In this document: in pieces, positions 10,336 through 29,335 of the stretch | Layout of the letters: each line of letters starts with the position of its first letter | How positions within the stretch are numbered: position 1 is the stretch's first letter | Virus record (IMG/VR): IMGVR_UViG_3300031555_004294 | Location: 235,071-299,070 of that record | Reading direction: 5' to 3' (one strand) | Length of the DNA: 64,000 nt | Origin: a virus | Lineage: Duplodnaviria > Caudoviricetes | The notes under the pieces: model-generated | What the model was told of the DNA's origin: nothing | What the model saw: only the letters and a program-made list of their open reading frames with translations | The model's database searches: none | Program-made: the position numbers and the translations under genes

Positions 10336-10746
10336 AATTAATCAGAGAAGTTGATGGTATCAGAGTAAAATAATGAATCATGAAATATAAAATAGTATCA
10401 AAATTGTATAATGAATCAATAATCTAGACAGTATCAATAATAGAAATGAATCATTCGAACAAATAGTATCACGTTGGTGTAATGAATCAAATGAACTTAT
10501 AGTATCAACATACAGAAATGAATCAGAACAAGAAATAGTATCAGGAATACACAATGAATCAATGATATTAATGTAGTATCAACCCATCTAAATGAATCAT
10601 TGTTGTCTACAGTATCATATATAAAAAATGAATCAACATGGTCAAATGGTATCACTTTCAATTAATGAATCAAATAAAGAAATAGTATCAAATACTTATA
10701 ATGAATCACGATCACCAATACAATAGTGTCAGAGCGTTTCAATGAA
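10336..10746 (+). ncRNA. TIGR-like dual-repeat guide array 1 (11 units, orphan)
   Basis: Alternating AATGAATCA and ANAGTATCA repeats with mostly 9-nt variable spacers (range 8-14), period about 36 nt; ends at a terminator. Confidence 0.85.
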
Positions 10747-10750
10747 AAAA

Positions 10751-10789
10751 AAGAATATACCCACCAAAGGATATATTCTTTTTTTTTTG
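10751..10789 (+). terminator. Bidirectional terminator closing array 1
   Basis: AAGAATATA/TATATTCTT stem with A run before and T run after. Confidence 0.75.
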
Positions 10790-10824: not shown

Positions 10825-12666
10825 CTATCGTTCATATTTGTAATCATAATTTCCACAATCCCAAATTCGACAATACTTAGTTTTGTCCATTATCTGGAAC
10901 TCAGTTAAGTTATCATCGTAAATCTCTGGAAATAATTTCTTTAGTTTATGCTTCTGAAAATTAAACCTAGTTTCTCTAGTAACAAAGTCTGTATAAGAAT
11001 AACCAGGTTTACTAATATCATCTAGAACAAATCCAGTTGATTCATATAATCCACCTTTAGACCATCTTCTATCAGCATATGTTATAATACTCTTCCATTC
11101 ATAATTCTCTTTAAAGTATCCAAATAACTTATCAAATGCTCCATAGACTTGAAATTCTATATCAGTAGCAAATCTAGAAAGTTCATAGTCATACTTTCCC
11201 TTTTTTGTAAATCTAGGTTTACAAAATGTCATAACTGCAACTAATCTATTTTCTTCATCGTTTATAGGATACCATAATCCAAGCTTTACATTAGCTTTAT
11301 CTTCACCTTGAATGTGATTTTCATTTAGGAATTGATTCTTATCTGAAGCATTAAGCTCAGCTATAAAGCATTTAGATGCTCTAATTTTAGGTAGTTCTTT
11401 AGAACAGCCTAAAATGTGTTTTAACTTAGACTTGACTATATCTTGCTTAAAGTTCCATTCATCTTCAAAAACATGTATTAATTGTATACCTTTCTGTTTA
11501 CAAGCAATGGTTTTGTTTAAGTGATAGTTTTTATCTGATAACATTTTCTCACTATGCCAATACAAACCATCAAATTCGATTGCTATATTTTTCTCTGGTA
11601 GGTAAATATCTAACTCTTTTCCATTTAAAATTGTACGATCATTTTCTATAATCGTTCCAGTGTAAAATGATTTGATAAATTCGATGATTTCTTTTTCATC
11701 GTCACTGTAACCCTTTATCTTAGAACATTTAGGACAACGATGCATTCTTGATGTAAAATGATGAGGAAGTACTGGATAATCATGTCCACAGGTATTATGC
11801 ATCATCTTAATAGAGACGCTTGCATTTACATATTTTCCAAGAACAGTATATTCATCACCTACTAGATCATAGACTTGCTTTTCAAATTGTTCTTGGGTGA
11901 ATGTTCTCTCTACTAGTCTACAATCCTTACAACGAACTCCTTGTTTAAATGAATGGGGAGTAATGTAATCAAGATCCTTTCCACATGTATTATGTCTCAT
12001 TGCTATTAGAGTGTCTGTATTAACATACTCGCCTAGCACAGTGTACTCGTCACCTACTAGAGCATAGACATCTTTCTTAAATCTTTCAGTTGTATAAGCT
12101 CCACATATCTTACATCTAACTCCACCAGTTATAAATGCATGAGGAGTTGTAGGAAAAGTTTCTCCACAAACAGAATGTAACATTTCAACTGGTTCGTTAT
12201 ATTTAGTAAACGGAGTTACTGGTAGGTACTCTCCACCAACCAAGTCATACACTTTTTGCTTAAACTTTTCATCCTTCTCCTTTGCTAAACATGTCTTACA
12301 ACGTTGCTGTCCTTTTTTAAATCTAGCTGGTATGATTGGATAAATTTCTCCGCACTTATGTTTTATATCGAGTTCTGTATTGTTATTTACATAGGTTCCT
12401 AAAACTGTATAGTCAGTTCCAACTAATTTGTACACTTCTTTCTTAAATGTTTCTGTAGTTCCTTTAAGGTTACCAAAACATACTGGACATCTTGTATTAT
12501 CTTTAAAATGTGCTGGTGTAATATACCACTCATCATAACCACAAACGTTATGTTTCATTCGTATCTTTGTCTTATCATTTGCATATTCACCTAGAACAGT
12601 ATATTCATCACCAACTAAACTTTCTACTAAAGCCTTGTACTCTTCAGTATTAGATCTTGGCCACAT
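10825..12666 (-). CDS. Putative homing endonuclease: repeated H..CG...CxxC zinc modules, a DUF559/Vsr-like nuclease domain and a Hef-like C-terminus
   Basis: Five repeats of (VY.LVG.EYTVLG.Y...H..CG...C..C); ELDIYLPEKNIAIEFDGLYWH; YELSRF, TYADRRWSKG, RIWDCG. Confidence 0.7.
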   Translation of the reverse strand: MWPRSNTEEYKALVESLVGDEYTVLGEYANDKTKIRMKHNVCGYDEWYITPAHFKDNTRCPVCFGNLKGTTETFKKEVYKLVGTDYTVLGTYVNNNTELDIKHKCGEIYPIIPARFKKGQQRCKTCLAKEKDEKFKQKVYDLVGGEYLPVTPFTKYNEPVEMLHSVCGETFPTTPHAFITGGVRCKICGAYTTERFKKDVYALVGDEYTVLGEYVNTDTLIAMRHNTCGKDLDYITPHSFKQGVRCKDCRLVERTFTQEQFEKQVYDLVGDEYTVLGKYVNASVSIKMMHNTCGHDYPVLPHHFTSRMHRCPKCSKIKGYSDDEKEIIEFIKSFYTGTIIENDRTILNGKELDIYLPEKNIAIEFDGLYWHSEKMLSDKNYHLNKTIACKQKGIQLIHVFEDEWNFKQDIVKSKLKHILGCSKELPKIRASKCFIAELNASDKNQFLNENHIQGEDKANVKLGLWYPINDEENRLVAVMTFCKPRFTKKGKYDYELSRFATDIEFQVYGAFDKLFGYFKENYEWKSIITYADRRWSKGGLYESTGFVLDDISKPGYSYTDFVTRETRFNFQKHKLKKLFPEIYDDNLTEFQIMDKTKYCRIWDCGNYDYKYER

Positions 12667-15000: not shown

Positions 15001-15711
15001 ATGAGTAACCTAATGAACAAAATTAGAACATCAAAAATAATTTTCAACATTCTTTTTATTTTATCTGAAGCGTATGCTGTTGTTACAAATTTACTTCCTT
15101 CAAAAGAAGAAAGAATTAAAAAGAACTATGAAGCTGTAAAGAAATTCACTAAAGAAGATGGTAAGGAATACATCAATGGACAAGGTTTAGGAGAAGTAGC
15201 AACTTTACCATTTGGAAAGAAAACATTTAGTTATTGCGGATGTGGTGCAATTGCAACTTACAATTCCTTAGTAACTTTAGGCTGTAAAGATTGTTTGGCT
15301 GATACTGCTAAATATTATGAGACCAGTGGACTTATTTTAGACGGTGCCTTTGGTATCCATCCAAATGCTGTTAGAAATTATTTTGAAGATGTTCAATGTG
15401 ATGTAAACGTACATATACTCTACAATTCTGATGTAGATAACAATTATGAAAAGTTTGATGAAATTTTTAAAGATGCAAAATCTGCAATCCTTTTATCTTG
15501 GAATTCTGTAAATCTAAAGCATGATAATGGTAATTTTGCAGGAATGCATTATGTATCTATATCACATTCATTAGACAAAGATGGTAATCCAAGAATTGAT
15601 GTTTATAATGCATACAGTAAAGTAAACCATCTTGTACATTACAACTCAATCGAATCGTACATTAAAACACAGAAAATACTCCCAGTAGTTTTATTTACAC
15701 TCAACAAGTAA
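15001..15711 (+). CDS. Putative C39-like cysteine peptidase
   Basis: GCGAIATYNSL and MHYVSI motifs; late promoter at 14900. Confidence 0.5.
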   Translation: MSNLMNKIRTSKIIFNILFILSEAYAVVTNLLPSKEERIKKNYEAVKKFTKEDGKEYINGQGLGEVATLPFGKKTFSYCGCGAIATYNSLVTLGCKDCLADTAKYYETSGLILDGAFGIHPNAVRNYFEDVQCDVNVHILYNSDVDNNYEKFDEIFKDAKSAILLSWNSVNLKHDNGNFAGMHYVSISHSLDKDGNPRIDVYNAYSKVNHLVHYNSIESYIKTQKILPVVLFTLNK

Positions 15712-15798
15712 TAATATTTAATCCGTACTATATCTATATATTTTAGATATAGTACGGATTAAATTTATGCTTAAAAATGAAAGGAAATAATACAAGAT

Positions 15799-16320
15799 AT
15801 GTATGAACGAGAGAATTATATATCATGGGATGAATATTTTATGGGAGTAGCTTTATTAGCTGCTAAGAGAAGTAAAGATCCTAGAAGACAAGTTGGAGCT
15901 TGTATTGTAAAAGACAATAAAATTTTAGCAACTGGATACAATGGTTTTCCTAGAGGATGCTCTGATGATGCTTATTGTTGGGCTAAAGATGTTGACAAAG
16001 AAGTAAATGAAAGAGAAAAAAGATTTAATAATAGACTCTCACGTAATAAGTTCTGGTATGTTATTCATGCAGAACTAAATGCAATTCTTAATTGTAATAG
16101 AACTGACTTAGATAATAGCATCATTTATGTTGATCTATTTCCTTGTAATGAATGTGCAAAAACAATCATTCAAGCTGGAATAAAAGAAGTTGTTTATATG
16201 AGTGATGAGGATATACACAAAGAGTCATATAAAGTGTCTAAACTAATGTTAGATGATGCAAATGTCAAAATAAGAAAGATTGAAAGAACTGAATTTTTGA
16301 TAAAACTAATGGAGGTTTAA
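15799..16320 (+). CDS. dCMP deaminase
   Basis: WDEYFM, RSKDP, QVGACIV, GYNG, HAELNAI, PCNECAK. Confidence 0.92.
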   Translation: MYERENYISWDEYFMGVALLAAKRSKDPRRQVGACIVKDNKILATGYNGFPRGCSDDAYCWAKDVDKEVNEREKRFNNRLSRNKFWYVIHAELNAILNCNRTDLDNSIIYVDLFPCNECAKTIIQAGIKEVVYMSDEDIHKESYKVSKLMLDDANVKIRKIERTEFLIKLMEV

Positions 16321-16322
16321 GT

Positions 16323-16691
16323 ATGTTTATACGTGTAGGAACTGTAGAAAGATACAATGAGAAAAAAGATGAAATTCTTGAAAACTTTGGTGAGAAAATT
16401 TTAGAAAGAACTAAAGAAATAGTAGAAATGCTGGATGAAGAATATGGAAAGGACAGAGATGTCTTTAATTCTGATGGTGGATGGGTTGTTTTAATTAAAA
16501 ACTACAAAGGTTTTGATGACTATGATGAACATTCAGAAACTGAAAGTCTATCAGAATCTGTGTATGAATATTGTAATGAAATTGATTTTGATCCATTTGT
16601 AGAAGTTCTCTATCTAGTAAATAACGAAACTGGTATCACTGTTTTTATGCCAAAGGAAATCTTCGAGACAGAATTAAACGAAGATGATTGA
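16323..16691 (+). CDS. Hypothetical protein
   Basis: ORF in operon with RBS GGAGG. Confidence 0.6.
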   Translation: MFIRVGTVERYNEKKDEILENFGEKILERTKEIVEMLDEEYGKDRDVFNSDGGWVVLIKNYKGFDDYDEHSETESLSESVYEYCNEIDFDPFVEVLYLVNNETGITVFMPKEIFETELNEDD

Positions 16692-17092
16692 AAGGAGAGC
16701 ACTCTATGAATGTTCTGTTAAGGAAAATCATAATTACATCAGACGAAGAAATTCAAATCCTTAATGAGAATACAAAAAAGACATTGTTTGGTAGAAATAA
16801 AGTTGTTGAAAATATAACTACTGAACAAGAACACTATGAATATTGGATTGAATTCCATATTGATCAAGGTAGATTTTACTATGGTGAGAAAAAACCTATA
16901 GAAATTGAAGGTAGGAATGGTATTTACAAATATCAAATCACTACTAGTCACACTAAACGTGGTCTTGATAAAAGTTTAGAAATTATCAGTGAAATTATGG
17001 AAAGAACTAAACTTATACATCCAAAATGGGAAATTGAATTGTATCAGGTTAAGAATATGCCATTCTATAGACAATTCGATAAAGATAATTGA
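16688..17092 (+). CDS. Hypothetical protein
   Basis: ORF in operon; lies immediately upstream of array 2. Confidence 0.55.
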   Translation: MKGEHSMNVLLRKIIITSDEEIQILNENTKKTLFGRNKVVENITTEQEHYEYWIEFHIDQGRFYYGEKKPIEIEGRNGIYKYQITTSHTKRGLDKSLEIISEIMERTKLIHPKWEIELYQVKNMPFYRQFDKDN

Positions 17093-17115
17093 GACATATA
17101 ATGGTGCCTTGTAAT

Positions 17116-17626
17116 AGAAAATCAATGTAATCGACAGTATCAATATTTGAAAATGAATCACTAGAAGAGATAGTAACATAACTTATGAATGAATCAATAT
17201 GTAAGACAGTATCAGACATATGCTAATGAATCAATACTAATTACAGTAACAGTCACCACTAATGAATCACATCGGGTAACAGTATCAAATAAATATAATG
17301 AATCAAATAACTTGAAAGTATCAATTGTAGCTAATGAATCAGTGCACATTAATAATATCACAGCGGTAATAAATGAACCATAATTGCGGATAGTAACAGA
17401 AGGAAATAGTGAATCAATGTCAGGGAACAGTATCAAGAGGTGAAAAATGAGTCAGCGAGAATGACAGTATCATATGACAGCAACGAATCAATATATTAAA
17501 CTCGTATCTTTTGTTCAAATGAATCATTCATACGGACAGTATCATGCTAAATCAATGAATCATGGATGAAAATAGTATCAGTGACTTATAATGAGTCAAG
17601 ATAAAAAACTCGTATCATTACAAATA
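17116..17626 (+). ncRNA. TIGR-like dual-repeat guide array 2 (14 units, orphan)
   Basis: AATGAATCA-9nt-ACAGTATCA-9nt periodicity, e.g. aatgaatca atatgtaag acagtatca gacatatgct; some repeat variants (aatgagtca, atagtaaca). Confidence 0.85.
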
Positions 17627-17635
17627 AACAATAAG

Positions 17636-17678
17636 AAATGACTAAATGAGATTTACTCTCATTTAGTCATTTTTTTTT
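17636..17678 (+). terminator. Terminator closing array 2
   Basis: AAATGACTAAATGAG/CTCATTTAGTCATTT stem followed by a T run. Confidence 0.8.
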
Positions 17679-18367
17679 TACATTTTTATAGCAATGTTAA
17701 GTTCTGGGAATCTAGCTTCTACTAAAATTCTGTCTTTACTATATCTATCGTTAGCGTTCCATTCTTCCTTTAGATACTTAAGACCACGAATAACTTGCTT
17801 TGTTACTTCCTTTAAGTCAGAAGATTCTCTTACAAGAATAGGATATGCTTTAGGATTAAAAGATAAAATCTTTAAAGGATCACATTTGATCTTTAAGCCA
17901 TTTTCATCATAAGCAACTGCTTCGTTAATCATCATGTTGTGATTATGATATTCAGTTTCTAAAACTAAAGTTTTTGTATTGGATGGCATATTGTAATCTA
18001 AAGATTCGAAATAAGATTGAATGTCCAAATCTGTATTGTTAATTGCAGTATCAAAATTAAAACTGCTTTCAGAAATAACCTTACGTTTGTAAACTAGATT
18101 CATTTCATTTAAACGATGATCCCAGAATTCATCAGTAGATTCCTGAGTTAAGGACTCAATCGAAATTGTATCAGACCATTTTGTATAATAATTTGCTACT
18201 AAAATCTTACCTAAGTCTGTAAAGTCTTCAGTATACATTTTAGAATCAACACCAAATGTCTCTAGATTTTCTATACCAACATCAGTTAGAAGATTTTTAC
18301 CTTCACACCAAGTATAAAACTTTTCTAATATATTAAATGAATGCTGTTTATTCATGATTTCAGTCAA
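17678..18367 (-). CDS. Hypothetical late (virion?) protein
   Basis: Late promoter at 18407-18418 (-). Confidence 0.6.
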   Translation of the reverse strand: MTEIMNKQHSFNILEKFYTWCEGKNLLTDVGIENLETFGVDSKMYTEDFTDLGKILVANYYTKWSDTISIESLTQESTDEFWDHRLNEMNLVYKRKVISESSFNFDTAINNTDLDIQSYFESLDYNMPSNTKTLVLETEYHNHNMMINEAVAYDENGLKIKCDPLKILSFNPKAYPILVRESSDLKEVTKQVIRGLKYLKEEWNANDRYSKDRILVEARFPELNIAIKM

Positions 18368-18427
18368 TACTTCCTTTCTTTTAAAAGTTTTTGTATCATA
18401 TTACATTATTTAGTTGTTTGCTTTTAT

Positions 18428-26108: not shown

Positions 26109-27284
26109 TTAGATATTGCTTGCAGCCATCGTCTTCTTATTAGTATCAAAGAAGAGATCCATGTAGTCATCATACTTTGTAAAAGTATCGTGGATCTTTT
26201 TATAGTTCACACCGATATTCTTAAGTACGCCTACCATGATATCCTTGGGAAGTACTCTACATACTTCAATGAAACGCTTACAAAGCTTATCTCCAGTCTT
26301 CTTATCATTGAAGTCCTTAAGATTCTCATCGATATAACGAATACATCTGTCAATGATAACGAACTGTCTTGTAGAAGTATCACCCTTAATCTTGGAAAGA
26401 ATATCACGCTCAAACTTCTCATCTGTGCTTTGGAAGATTTCTTTCACAGTAGTAATGGGATTCTTCTTGTTTCTGAGAAAACTAGTCAGAGAAGTTGCAG
26501 GAGTCTGACCTACTACACCCTTTGCTGCTTCAAACAACATACCTTCAAAGTTCTCAGGATAGTAGGTCTTGATCTGTCTCATTACCTTTGAGAGCAATTC
26601 CCAACCACGAGGAGTAGGTTTAACCTCTTCCTTACTATGGGGGTCATGAAGAAGATTAGGCATTTCTGCAATGAATTCGATGATGTCAGTATCGATAGCT
26701 TCAGAACCAGTTTCAGGATCATCCTTAGTATTAGATGCCCACTTAAGCCAGTCCTTGACATCTGCTTCAAGTGTATACTTTACAAAACGATTCTTCATAG
26801 CGTCATTCATGACGTTAACCTGATAATCATTGTCATCATCATATTCAGGGTTTCCTGCTGCAATGACAATACAACCTTCAGGGAGAATAGTTTCGTTGAT
26901 TCGTCTATCGAGAATTAACTGCATCAATTCTTGGTTTACAGCATTCTCGCATCTATTCAACTCGTCGATAAAGAGAATCGTGTTTATACCCTTCTTATCG
27001 TTCTCCAAGATCTGATTGAGTTTTACATGCGTAGTATAGTCATTAACCATTCTACCCGATTCATCATCTTTTCTTGGTACGGGAATGCCACCCAATTCTC
27101 CTTCCTTCAAGAGTGCACCGAAAAGTGTGACAACAGGGACATCATCAAAGCCATTTTCCTTATAAAGCTTTGCTACTTCCTTGATCATCTGTGACTTTCC
27201 TACGCCAGCATGTCCTTCGATATAAGGTACAACACCTGCTACACTTGTTACGAATACCTGTGGCAATAATTCCGAATACTTCAT
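26109..27284 (-). CDS. MoxR-like AAA+ ATPase
   Basis: Walker A GHAGVGKS, Walker B LFIDELNR, AAGNP, NRF, PTPRGW; start re-called to MKYSELL behind AAAAGGAG. Confidence 0.88.
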   Translation of the reverse strand: MKYSELLPQVFVTSVAGVVPYIEGHAGVGKSQMIKEVAKLYKENGFDDVPVVTLFGALLKEGELGGIPVPRKDDESGRMVNDYTTHVKLNQILENDKKGINTILFIDELNRCENAVNQELMQLILDRRINETILPEGCIVIAAGNPEYDDDNDYQVNVMNDAMKNRFVKYTLEADVKDWLKWASNTKDDPETGSEAIDTDIIEFIAEMPNLLHDPHSKEEVKPTPRGWELLSKVMRQIKTYYPENFEGMLFEAAKGVVGQTPATSLTSFLRNKKNPITTVKEIFQSTDEKFERDILSKIKGDTSTRQFVIIDRCIRYIDENLKDFNDKKTGDKLCKRFIEVCRVLPKDIMVGVLKNIGVNYKKIHDTFTKYDDYMDLFFDTNKKTMAASNI

Positions 27285-27410
27285 TTTCTGTTTATCTCCT
27301 TTTTGTATTAAAGTTTTACTAAGTAAAAATATATAGTTATAAACGTTTTTAGTGTTTATAACTATATATCTCTCCAACAGTTTTAAATTCTGTCGTAAAT
27401 TTGGTCATTA

Positions 27411-27927
27411 AGACTCAACTAAAAGTTGTTACTATTTGAAAGTTTTGATTCATTTTTTGGACGTGATACTATAAACGTCGATGATTCATTACAGGCAAGT
27501 GATACTGTTCTTATTATTGATTCATTTGACAGCTGTGATGCTATAAGGAACAATGATTCATTAAACTGCTTTGATACTATTAGGCATCGTGATTCATTAA
27601 AGAATAGTGATACTATTTAGCAACGTGATTCATTATAAAATATTGATACTATCATTGAAATTGATTCATTAATTGAAAGTGATGCTATTTTGACCATGTT
27701 GATTCATTGCGCGTTACTGATACTATTCGCTGTTAGTGATTCATTACACAACCATGGATACTAATTGTTAGACTGATTCATTCACTACATATGCTACTGT
27801 CAATTATACTGATTCATTTTTGCTTCATGATACTATTGTCGCTATTGATTCATTAAACCCAGATGATACTATAAATTACTCTGATTCATTTTTCCACGAT
27901 GATACTATAAAGTTCCAATGATTTCAC
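27411..27927 (-). ncRNA. TIGR-like dual-repeat guide array 3 (14 units), directly downstream of the Tas-like gene
   Basis: Plus strand shows TGATTCATT and TGATACTAT alternating with 9-11 nt spacers, i.e. the same repeats as arrays 1 and 2 on the minus strand. Confidence 0.9.
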
Positions 27928-27941
27928 AAAAAATTTTATAA

Positions 27942-27977
27942 AAAGCAACTACTAGCTAAAATACTAGTAGTTGCTTT
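27942..27977 (-). terminator. Hairpin between the tas-like gene and array 3 (terminator or processing stem)
   Basis: AAAGCAACTACTAG/CTAGTAGTTGCTTT inverted repeat. Confidence 0.65.
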
Positions 27978-27993: not shown

Positions 27994-29043
27994 TCAGAAG
28001 CTATCTCTGCCAGGCTTCAAACCAAGGATTTCCTTATGAGGAGGCTCAATGATATGAACATGCCCAAGATGTACTTCGGCAAAAGGACGAGGAGCAGGTC
28101 TACCATTTGCATATTCATACCAAACAGTAAACAAATGAGATAGGAAGATCTTTTCTGCATATCTCTTAGCCATTGAAATCATATGTGCCATGGGTAACTT
28201 ACCACTCTCATAAGTTTTCTTAGCTTCAGTTTCTTTTTCAAAGTTCTTCTCTTTCAATGTAAGAGCTGCCAACTCTGTAAAGCCACCTCTCTCATTTCTT
28301 TCAATGTATTCCTTAAGCTTTTCTCTGTAGAGATGTCCATAGATTGCATCGGGAATTCTATCAATAGGATTTCCATTCTCATCAAGAAGAATATTACCGT
28401 CACTGTCCTTCTTATATCCAGATACCTTGGCAAACTGTTCTCCAGCTTTCCAGCAAAGTACCTTAAAGTGAGGGTTATAGTCAAGCTTTACTCCCTTCTT
28501 ACGGGGTGCTCTATGACCTTCAATACCGCCATATCTCCAAATGGAACCTGCAGTTTGACACTTAGAAATGTCGATATAAGAAAGGAAACCTGCTGCAAGC
28601 ACAGGTCCAATTCCCTTTACAGTAAGAAGCCACTTTCCAATGGGGTCTCTCTTAACATAGTCTTCCAGCCAAGATGCAATTACTTCCTCGATGTCCTTAA
28701 GACCTGCCTTTGCATATGCAAACGAAATATTGTTGGTTGCTTCATTTTCCTTTACAGTGCTTTCAATTTCCTTATCACTTTCATCTTTACTGTCCAACTG
28801 GAACTGTCTGTTGCCAGCACCAATTCTAAAATCCTGAATATCATAATACATTCTGATTGCACTGGTTGCTTCTTCTCTGGAAGTGATAGGATTACTCTTA
28901 ACAATGATCCTACCAAATCCTCTTTCGTAAGTATCTTGGAAACTTACCTTTTGCTTCTTGTTGTTTTCCGTGGGGTTTGCTGCAGAGATGGTGTCCATTA
29001 CTTCATTCTCTGCCTGTTCATTAGTGCTCTTCTTTCTAGCCAT
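27994..29043 (-). CDS. Nop-domain / IS110-related RNA-binding protein, TasA-like (no RuvC or HNH domain seen)
   Basis: Coiled-coil IRMYYDIQDFRIGAGNR, then WLLTVKGIGPVLAAGFLSYIDI...AGSIWRYGG and HMISMAKRYAEKIFLSHL (IS110-Cterm/Nop fold); start MARKKS behind AAAGGAG; adjacent 36-nt array. Confidence 0.8.
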   Translation of the reverse strand: MARKKSTNEQAENEVMDTISAANPTENNKKQKVSFQDTYERGFGRIIVKSNPITSREEATSAIRMYYDIQDFRIGAGNRQFQLDSKDESDKEIESTVKENEATNNISFAYAKAGLKDIEEVIASWLEDYVKRDPIGKWLLTVKGIGPVLAAGFLSYIDISKCQTAGSIWRYGGIEGHRAPRKKGVKLDYNPHFKVLCWKAGEQFAKVSGYKKDSDGNILLDENGNPIDRIPDAIYGHLYREKLKEYIERNERGGFTELAALTLKEKNFEKETEAKKTYESGKLPMAHMISMAKRYAEKIFLSHLFTVWYEYANGRPAPRPFAEVHLGHVHIIEPPHKEILGLKPGRDSF

Positions 29044-29080
29044 TTGATACTTCTCCTTTGTATATGATTTTAAATGGGTT

Positions 29081-29335
29081 TCAGATGCTATAAGGGGTCG
29101 GGTACATAGAAAAATTATCGAATTTGGTAACCACAACAGTTTTACCATTTTCTAATTTAGTATGTAAATTTCCATTGTCATCTACATACTGAACTTCTGC
29201 CTTAATTCCATAAGAAGGTAAAATTCTACCATTGATATGGTAGATCTTAATTACTGTTCCTTTTGGATAAGCTGTTTTTAACAGCCTAATTTTCTTTTCT
29301 TCTTCCATTGTACTAGTGTACATCATATTTTTCAT
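29081..29335 (-). CDS. DUF4314-like protein
   Basis: LKTAYPKGT...G...V..VDD.G.LH...ENG pattern. Confidence 0.6.
   Translation of the reverse strand: MKNMMYTSTMEEEKKIRLLKTAYPKGTVIKIYHINGRILPSYGIKAEVQYVDDNGNLHTKLENGKTVVVTKFDNFSMYPTPYSI

Follow-up and report, generated by a model that had tools for sequence, protein, structure and literature searches.

The window analysed here is the terminal 64 kb of a virus record 299,070 bp long, with 31% G+C and a CheckV completeness of 100%, which stems from animal faecal metagenomes. Within it, a dCMP deaminase operon occupies the plus strand at 15799-17092. It encodes the deaminase (15799-16320), a 122-aa protein (16323-16691) and a 134-aa protein (16688-17092), and a PHROGs search with the latter two returned nothing useful. 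A repeat array, here array 2 (17116-17634, plus strand), begins 23 nt past the last stop codon of the operon and is closed by an intrinsic terminator at 17633-17678, in which a 19-pair stem (17633-17675) is followed by a T run. The same terminator also faces a convergent gene at 17678-18367. Two further arrays share the repeats of array 2. Array 1 (10336-10745, plus strand) contains 11 units after the gyrA operon, and array 3 (27411-27927, minus strand) contains 14 units directly downstream of tasA (27994-29043, minus strand), from which it is separated by a hairpin at 27942-27977. Each array is co-oriented with its upstream genes. No further array was detected in the rest of the phage genome, and no near-identical DNA was present in the phage collection.

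Array 2 is organized in 14 units, in each of which spacer A lies between an edge repeat (AATGAATCA) and a loop repeat (AyAGTATCA), and spacer B comes after the loop. Reading and parsing in register yields 15 edges alternating with 14 loops, spacers of about 9 nt, and units of 36-38 nt. The edges start at 17116, 17152, 17188, 17225, 17261, 17297, 17333, 17372, 17408, 17446, 17482, 17518, 17554, 17590, and 17626, and a loop repeat lies about 18 nt after every edge. The first edge (17116) is 5'-truncated, with AAATCA alone left. The last (17626) is degenerate and lacks a clean 3' truncation, and unit 14 is without a proper 3' edge. Spacer intervals measure exactly 9 nt in 19 of 28 cases, 10-11 nt in seven, and 8 nt in two. 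Eight of the 15 edges are canonical, and the variants are AATGAGTCA (twice), AATGAACCA, AGTGAATCA, and AACGAATCA. Among the loops, ACAGTATCA is the commonest form (6/14), CTCGTATC(A/T) occurs twice, and the loop at 17352 reads ATAATATCA, with loss of the anchor G. In array 3, all full edges are canonical (13/13) and the commonest loop is ATAGTATCA (8/14). Among the three arrays, array 2 shows the most degeneracy. The sequence-only reading had described 14 units at the 3' end of the operon, followed by a terminator, with a biased second repeat and more variants than in array 3. This description is borne out in both layout and repeat statistics.

Particular positions within the repeats are strongly retained. 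The anchor G at repeat position 4 is found in 13/15 edges and 13/14 loops, the anchor C at position 8 in 14/15 edges and all 14 loops, and the A at position 9 in all 15 edges and 13/14 loops. As RNA, the edge takes the form xxUGxxUCA and the loop xxAGxxUCA, with G4 and C8-A9 nearly invariant across all three arrays. The composite pattern edge-N9-NNNGTATCA, allowing at most one mismatch, has 25 matches in the window, every one of them within arrays 1-3, against a mean of 0.03 in 100 shuffles.

This anatomy corresponds to that of dual-repeat TIGR arrays, which consist of two alternating repeats of 8-12 nt and 9-nt spacers A and B in a 36-nt unit, usually in 5-15 units (Faure et al. 2025, PMC12045711). 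Such arrays open with a 5'-truncated edge, and their last edge, 3'-truncated, precedes a rho-independent terminator (Faure et al. 2025, PMC12045711). Array 1 ends in this manner, with the 3'-truncated edge AATGA followed by an AT-rich hairpin and T run (10746-10789). In TaTasR arrays, edge and loop alike carry UG (box D) at the beginning and CCA (box C) at the end. The anchors found here, (U/A)G...UCA, represent a variant spelling of the published UG...CCA. The earlier proposal that array 2 is a guide-RNA array is supported by these features. Its RNA is predicted to fold worse than 100 of 100 shuffles (z = +3.19), as expected if guides must stay single-stranded. Contigs from four further faecal metagenomes match array 2 letter for letter wherever they overlap it, which argues against an assembly artefact. 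No Rfam family reached its gathering score anywhere in the window.

A CRISPR array was considered and ruled out, as the repeats are 9 nt long and of two kinds, with 9-nt spacers, compared with the 25-36-nt repeats of CRISPR arrays. Nothing Cas-like was found among the array neighbours scanned. Translation of the array into repeat peptides was also considered, given that ORFs of 56-74 aa overlap it, among them 17189-17383 (plus strand, 64 aa) and 17212-17436 (minus strand, 74 aa), and that an ATG occurs in every edge repeat. However, units of 37-38 nt break the frame, the ORFs span the array incompletely, and no positional conservation is seen among the variable parts. The same repeats also occur in other phages with unrelated variable parts, and we regard peptide coding as hardly credible.

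The repeat anchors, the upstream operon and the terminator T run all lie on the plus strand, which identifies it as the sense strand as far as sequence can settle. The AATGAATCA strand had been proposed as sense from its co-orientation with flanking transcription, and the co-oriented operon, the T-run terminator and the box D/box C reading, which is obtained on this strand only, agree with that proposal. Upstream of the deaminase gene, a perfect 20-bp hairpin (15717-15763, plus strand) carries TATATATT in its loop (15735-15742). This motif resembles the early promoter of phage AR9, AAATATATATTAT-N6-G (PMC5312081), and recurs before many genes in the window. The hairpin is a candidate early promoter of the dCMP deaminase operon, a candidate terminator of the preceding gene, or both. 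In the sister phage described below, an AR9-like motif (L001:15568) also sits in the loop of a long perfect hairpin at the same place (L001:15553-15597), with different stem letters, suggesting that the element may serve as terminator for the upstream gene and promoter for the operon. A scan requiring at least three G-C pairs found no terminator-like site between the motif at 15735 and array 2. Expression of array 2 from this putative promoter, as suggested previously, is plausible and would be a reasonable reading of the motif, although the motif lies in a hairpin loop. A search for RNA runs containing window 15700-18400 listed none. The location of TATATATT within a long perfect hairpin could reflect a combined terminator/promoter or a structured promoter.

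The probable protein partner is encoded 10.4 kb away. Read from its Met at residue 36, where the public gene call also starts, the longest ORF (27994-29148) gives a tasA product of 349 aa. A phmmer comparison with PDB sequences gave matches over the Nop domain, within the C-terminal 240 residues, to TaTasR (9mty, E 3.8e-12) and to SpTasH (E 3.6e-7). An AlphaFold (AF2) model built with 33 homologues reached a pLDDT of 83 and predicts a disordered N-terminus (residues 1-42), coiled-coil helices (56-94 and 106-131), and then a Nop fold. In a Foldseek search with this model, the best 11 matches were all TasH or TasR cryo-EM chains, followed by the bridge-RNA recombinases IS621 and ISCro4. Pfam detected no domain in the protein, including no HNH or RuvC nuclease. 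A Nop fold without a nuclease domain defines the protein as TasA. Across the whole genome the Pfam Nop model gave no match, being too insensitive for this Tas, and a family profile search identified a single tas copy. Regarding guide maturation, the Y289/H296 pair of SpTasH processes pre-tigRNA. H296 aligns with H363 of the long ORF, which is nearly invariant in the 33 homologues, and Y289 aligns with Phe. The Phe at the Tyr position makes self-processing of guides by TasA uncertain.

Array 3 adjoins tasA, and array 2 had been called an orphan. That label does not hold for the genome as a whole, since one tas gene lies in the same window and the repeats are common to all three arrays, which makes array 2 a distal array of one system. 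It is an orphan locally only. The Tas is present in cis on the same genome, without adjacency to array 2.

Regular short direct repeats in three clusters could alternatively be iterons, that is, DNA bound by a phage protein as a replication origin, partition site or packaging signal, with no RNA guides involved. The literature also links some TasA loci with ParB-like genes. Nonetheless, every array follows the direction of the transcription upstream of it, and a strand-specific terminator closes arrays 1 and 2. The tigRNA is matched exactly in unit length, in the two types of repeat and in variable parts of 9 nt, and a cognate Tas protein is present. Pfam scans around the arrays, an 84-aa ORF upstream of tasA (29081-29335) aside, revealed no ParB-like gene. 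A role of the repeats as iterons is very improbable.

Comparative genomics places array 2 at a conserved site. A Tas-based search identified a sister jumbo phage (G001, 319,626 bp) whose Tas is 63% identical. It carries one array directly after tas and a second between homologues of the 134-aa and 229-aa genes, which corresponds to the site of array 2. This second array has about 19 units and ends in a hairpin and T11. A search for more relatives through the 229-aa neighbour recovered G001 again and nothing else. The genes flanking array 2 are 75-79% identical to those of G001 at the DNA level, with about 60% identity at third codon positions and 56% (153/271) at four-fold sites. Between array 2 and its counterpart, spacer identity is at the random level (5.07 of 18), and no related units line up in a collinear chain. 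Repeats are thus constant while guides have been replaced faster than silent sites change, a pattern that points to selection on the distal array and not to a relic. Spacer turnover between strains had been named as a check. None was visible among the four additional faecal metagenomes, whose contigs are identical where they overlap array 2, and it was evident against G001, with which no spacers are shared.

Distal arrays extend beyond this pair of phages. A scan for edge-N9-loop-N9-edge found the same repeats on 12 viral contigs of 30-320 kb. In a complete 247-kb genome (G003), the single tas lies at about 209 kb, and arrays occur near 58, 86, and 208 kb. In a 264-kb genome (G005), tas lies at about 50.5 kb and arrays at 50.2 and 61.4 kb. 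A 141-kb genome with terminal repeats (G002) has tas at about 87 kb and an array of about 60 units at 74.3-76.6 kb. This array, 10 kb from tas, follows a dCMP deaminase homologue of the same orientation at a distance of about 1.5 kb. An array behind a dCMP deaminase operon is therefore found in three phages, namely the window phage, G001, and G002. The distance between an array and the only tas gene reaches about 150 kb in complete relatives, and a location far from tas is the norm for arrays of this clade.

These comparisons also bear on whether array 2 is a decaying relic, an array that once worked and is now drifting, at most transcribed as a passenger, with few or no units loaded into TasA. 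Its repeat variants and irregular spacing exceed those of arrays 1 and 3, its last unit lacks a proper 3' edge, and searches of its own genome and of G001 (detailed below) found no targets. Yet the box anchors are retained in nearly all units, and the repeats have stayed at consensus while flanking four-fold sites fell to 56% identity. The G001 array at the same site has grown to about 19 units, G002 has an array after its dCMP deaminase operon, and array 2 is identical in five faecal samples. Decay is accordingly an unlikely account of the array. The earlier suggestion of an older array agrees with the data, as array 2 has degenerated further than array 3 and occupies an old site, with a G001 array at the same spot.

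Altogether, array 2 is very probably a functional distal dual-repeat TIGR array belonging to the single TIGR-TasA system of a 299-kb AR9-like gut jumbo phage, and would be transcribed with its operon and processed into guides for sites that TasA would block. The array anatomy, terminator, Tas fold, absence of a nuclease domain, single tas gene, conserved site, and retention of repeats with replacement of spacers rest on the present analysis. For transcription, processing, DNA binding, and target identity, the proposal draws on the literature or on inference. The plus-strand transcript of the dCMP deaminase operon would run on to the terminator, with the array as its 3' part. TasA dimers, supplied from the distant gene, would bind the box D and box C anchors of edge and loop repeats, and the precursor would be cut mid-edge into 36-nt tigRNAs. 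Each tigRNA would then guide a TasA dimer to an 18-bp DNA site that reads, on one strand, spacer A and then the reverse complement of spacer B. TasA would bind and block this site, repressing transcription without cutting. According to Xu et al. (2026, bioRxiv 10.64898/2026.09.09.750476), MbTasA and nuclease-dead TasR show such tigRNA-guided DNA binding and transcriptional repression, the activity proposed here.

No explicit target geometry was found in two published application papers, so the one used here was derived from the C-5 rule and an 8-nt 3' overhang, and both orientations were tested. The 35 guides whose spacers are both 9 nt long were compared with the whole 299-kb genome in the two geometries, allowing up to three mismatches. 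The counts equalled those of reversed and partner-shuffled control guides, with zero matches at 0-1 mismatch. Cross-targeting searches with the guides of the window phage against G001, and the reverse, gave nothing above controls. The guides at 17333 and 17446 (gap 0-2) had no exact match in viral contigs. The guide at 17518 had three scattered matches in unrelated environmental MAGs among 596 Gb of genomes, which is chance level.

In FpTIGR/FpTasA of Flavonifractor plautii (PMC12045711), as here, two short repeats alternate, pairs of 9-nt spacers occur in a 36-nt unit, the first edge is truncated, a terminator ends the array, and the Tas is Nop-only, with no nuclease. By description, the present system differs in that array 2 sits behind an unrelated nucleotide-metabolism operon, 10.4 kb from tas, that three dispersed arrays go with one tas, and that the anchors read (U/A)G...UCA in place of UG...CCA. 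The best sequence and fold matches of the protein are SpTasH (Salicola phage CGphi29) and TaTasR (PDB 9w03, 9w04, 21kl, 9mty). Both have dual-repeat arrays like those found here, and SpTasH is likewise phage-borne. However, SpTasH and TaTasR carry an HNH or RuvC nuclease and cut DNA, whereas the TasA described here has no nuclease. CsTasR and PateTasR are presented in the same preprint (bioRxiv 10.64898/2026.09.09.750476) as stem-loop systems of CPR bacteria. Stand-alone CRISPR arrays and mini-arrays in phages also keep guides apart from effector genes. Those arrays have 25-36-nt repeats, a single spacer of similar size and Cas proteins, in contrast to the two 9-nt repeats, 9+9-nt spacers and Nop protein of the present system.

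TIGR-Tas systems were first described in 2025, and this kind of array has been known since then. What is new is the distance between array and tas, the stable position after the dCMP deaminase operon, the replacement of spacers set against silent-site divergence, and a hint of growth by unit duplication. A full-size array can sit far from tas behind an unrelated operon, with its site kept at 56% four-fold identity, and surveys confined to the tas neighbourhood will under-count guides. The array survey of Xu et al. (2026) covered the surroundings of tas, and arrays tens of kb away would not be visible to it. Conserved repeats combined with fully replaced spacers provide direct evidence of selection maintaining distal arrays. 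For annotation purposes, arrays 1-3 and tasA are best treated as one system.

Guide renewal within these genomes can be approached through near-duplicate units, defined as those sharing at least 13 of 18 spacer letters. They are enriched within genomes (15 of 7,844 pairs) relative to pairs between genomes (about 10 of 71,000, with one near-identical strain pair left out). Examples are found in array 2 (17482/17590), at L001:17144/17326 and L022:4855-6131, and in L012. On contig 3300031555_002387, a run of units recurs about 670 nt further on with 2/18 changes. The excess of near-duplicates and the repeated run suggest array growth by segmental duplication followed by point divergence. Such comparisons give a hint that arrays may grow by unit duplication, a testable idea on array growth. 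A broader proposal, which we find speculative and somewhat doubtful, is that jumbo phages of the clade deliberately distribute TIGR arrays over the 3' ends of different operons, at distances from a single tasA of up to about 150 kb, so that guide sets would be made at different infection times. The dCMP deaminase-linked array would then represent an ancient set expressed early, its guides being renewed through duplication of units with rapid divergence and not by capture of foreign DNA.

Arrays 1 and 3 display further features of their own. The array 1 unit at 10627-10663 and the array 3 unit at 27708-27671 (minus strand) have identical pairs of spacers (ACATGGTCA / CTTTCAATT). The two arrays are mutually inverted, and both junctions specific to the window relative to G001 fall at these arrays. 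The order in G001 is tas-array-p613, with gyrA-p143-AAA ATPase adjacent, and the order in the window is p70-array 1-p613 and AAA ATPase-array 3-tas. These junctions fit an inversion of the 10.8-27.4 kb block, with putative breakpoints in the arrays. The two genomes also differ by other rearrangements, and the change could have gone in either direction. Convergent with array 1, a 613-aa gene (10825-12666, minus strand) codes for a large HNH/homing endonuclease (phrog_559, E 9e-187). Partial paralogues of this gene occur at other places in the genome, and in G001 it adjoins the tas-adjacent array. Next to array 3, the listed TTG start of the AAA ATPase ORF (26109-27377, minus strand) is probably too far upstream. 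Its 5' end contains the TATATATT motif at 27335 (minus strand), followed by a ribosome-binding site and an ATG. This internal arrangement indicates that about 27260-27410 is likely intergenic and carries the promoter of the AAA ATPase gene.

One guide is held in common between other members of the clade. G001 (204299) and L009:7014 share it at 17 of 18 spacer letters (ACTTGAATT/TTGAATGGG versus TCTTGAATT/TTGAATGGG). The Tas proteins of the phages that share this guide are 63% (G001) and 52% (G005) identical to that of the window, and the near-identity of the guide may point to a common target.
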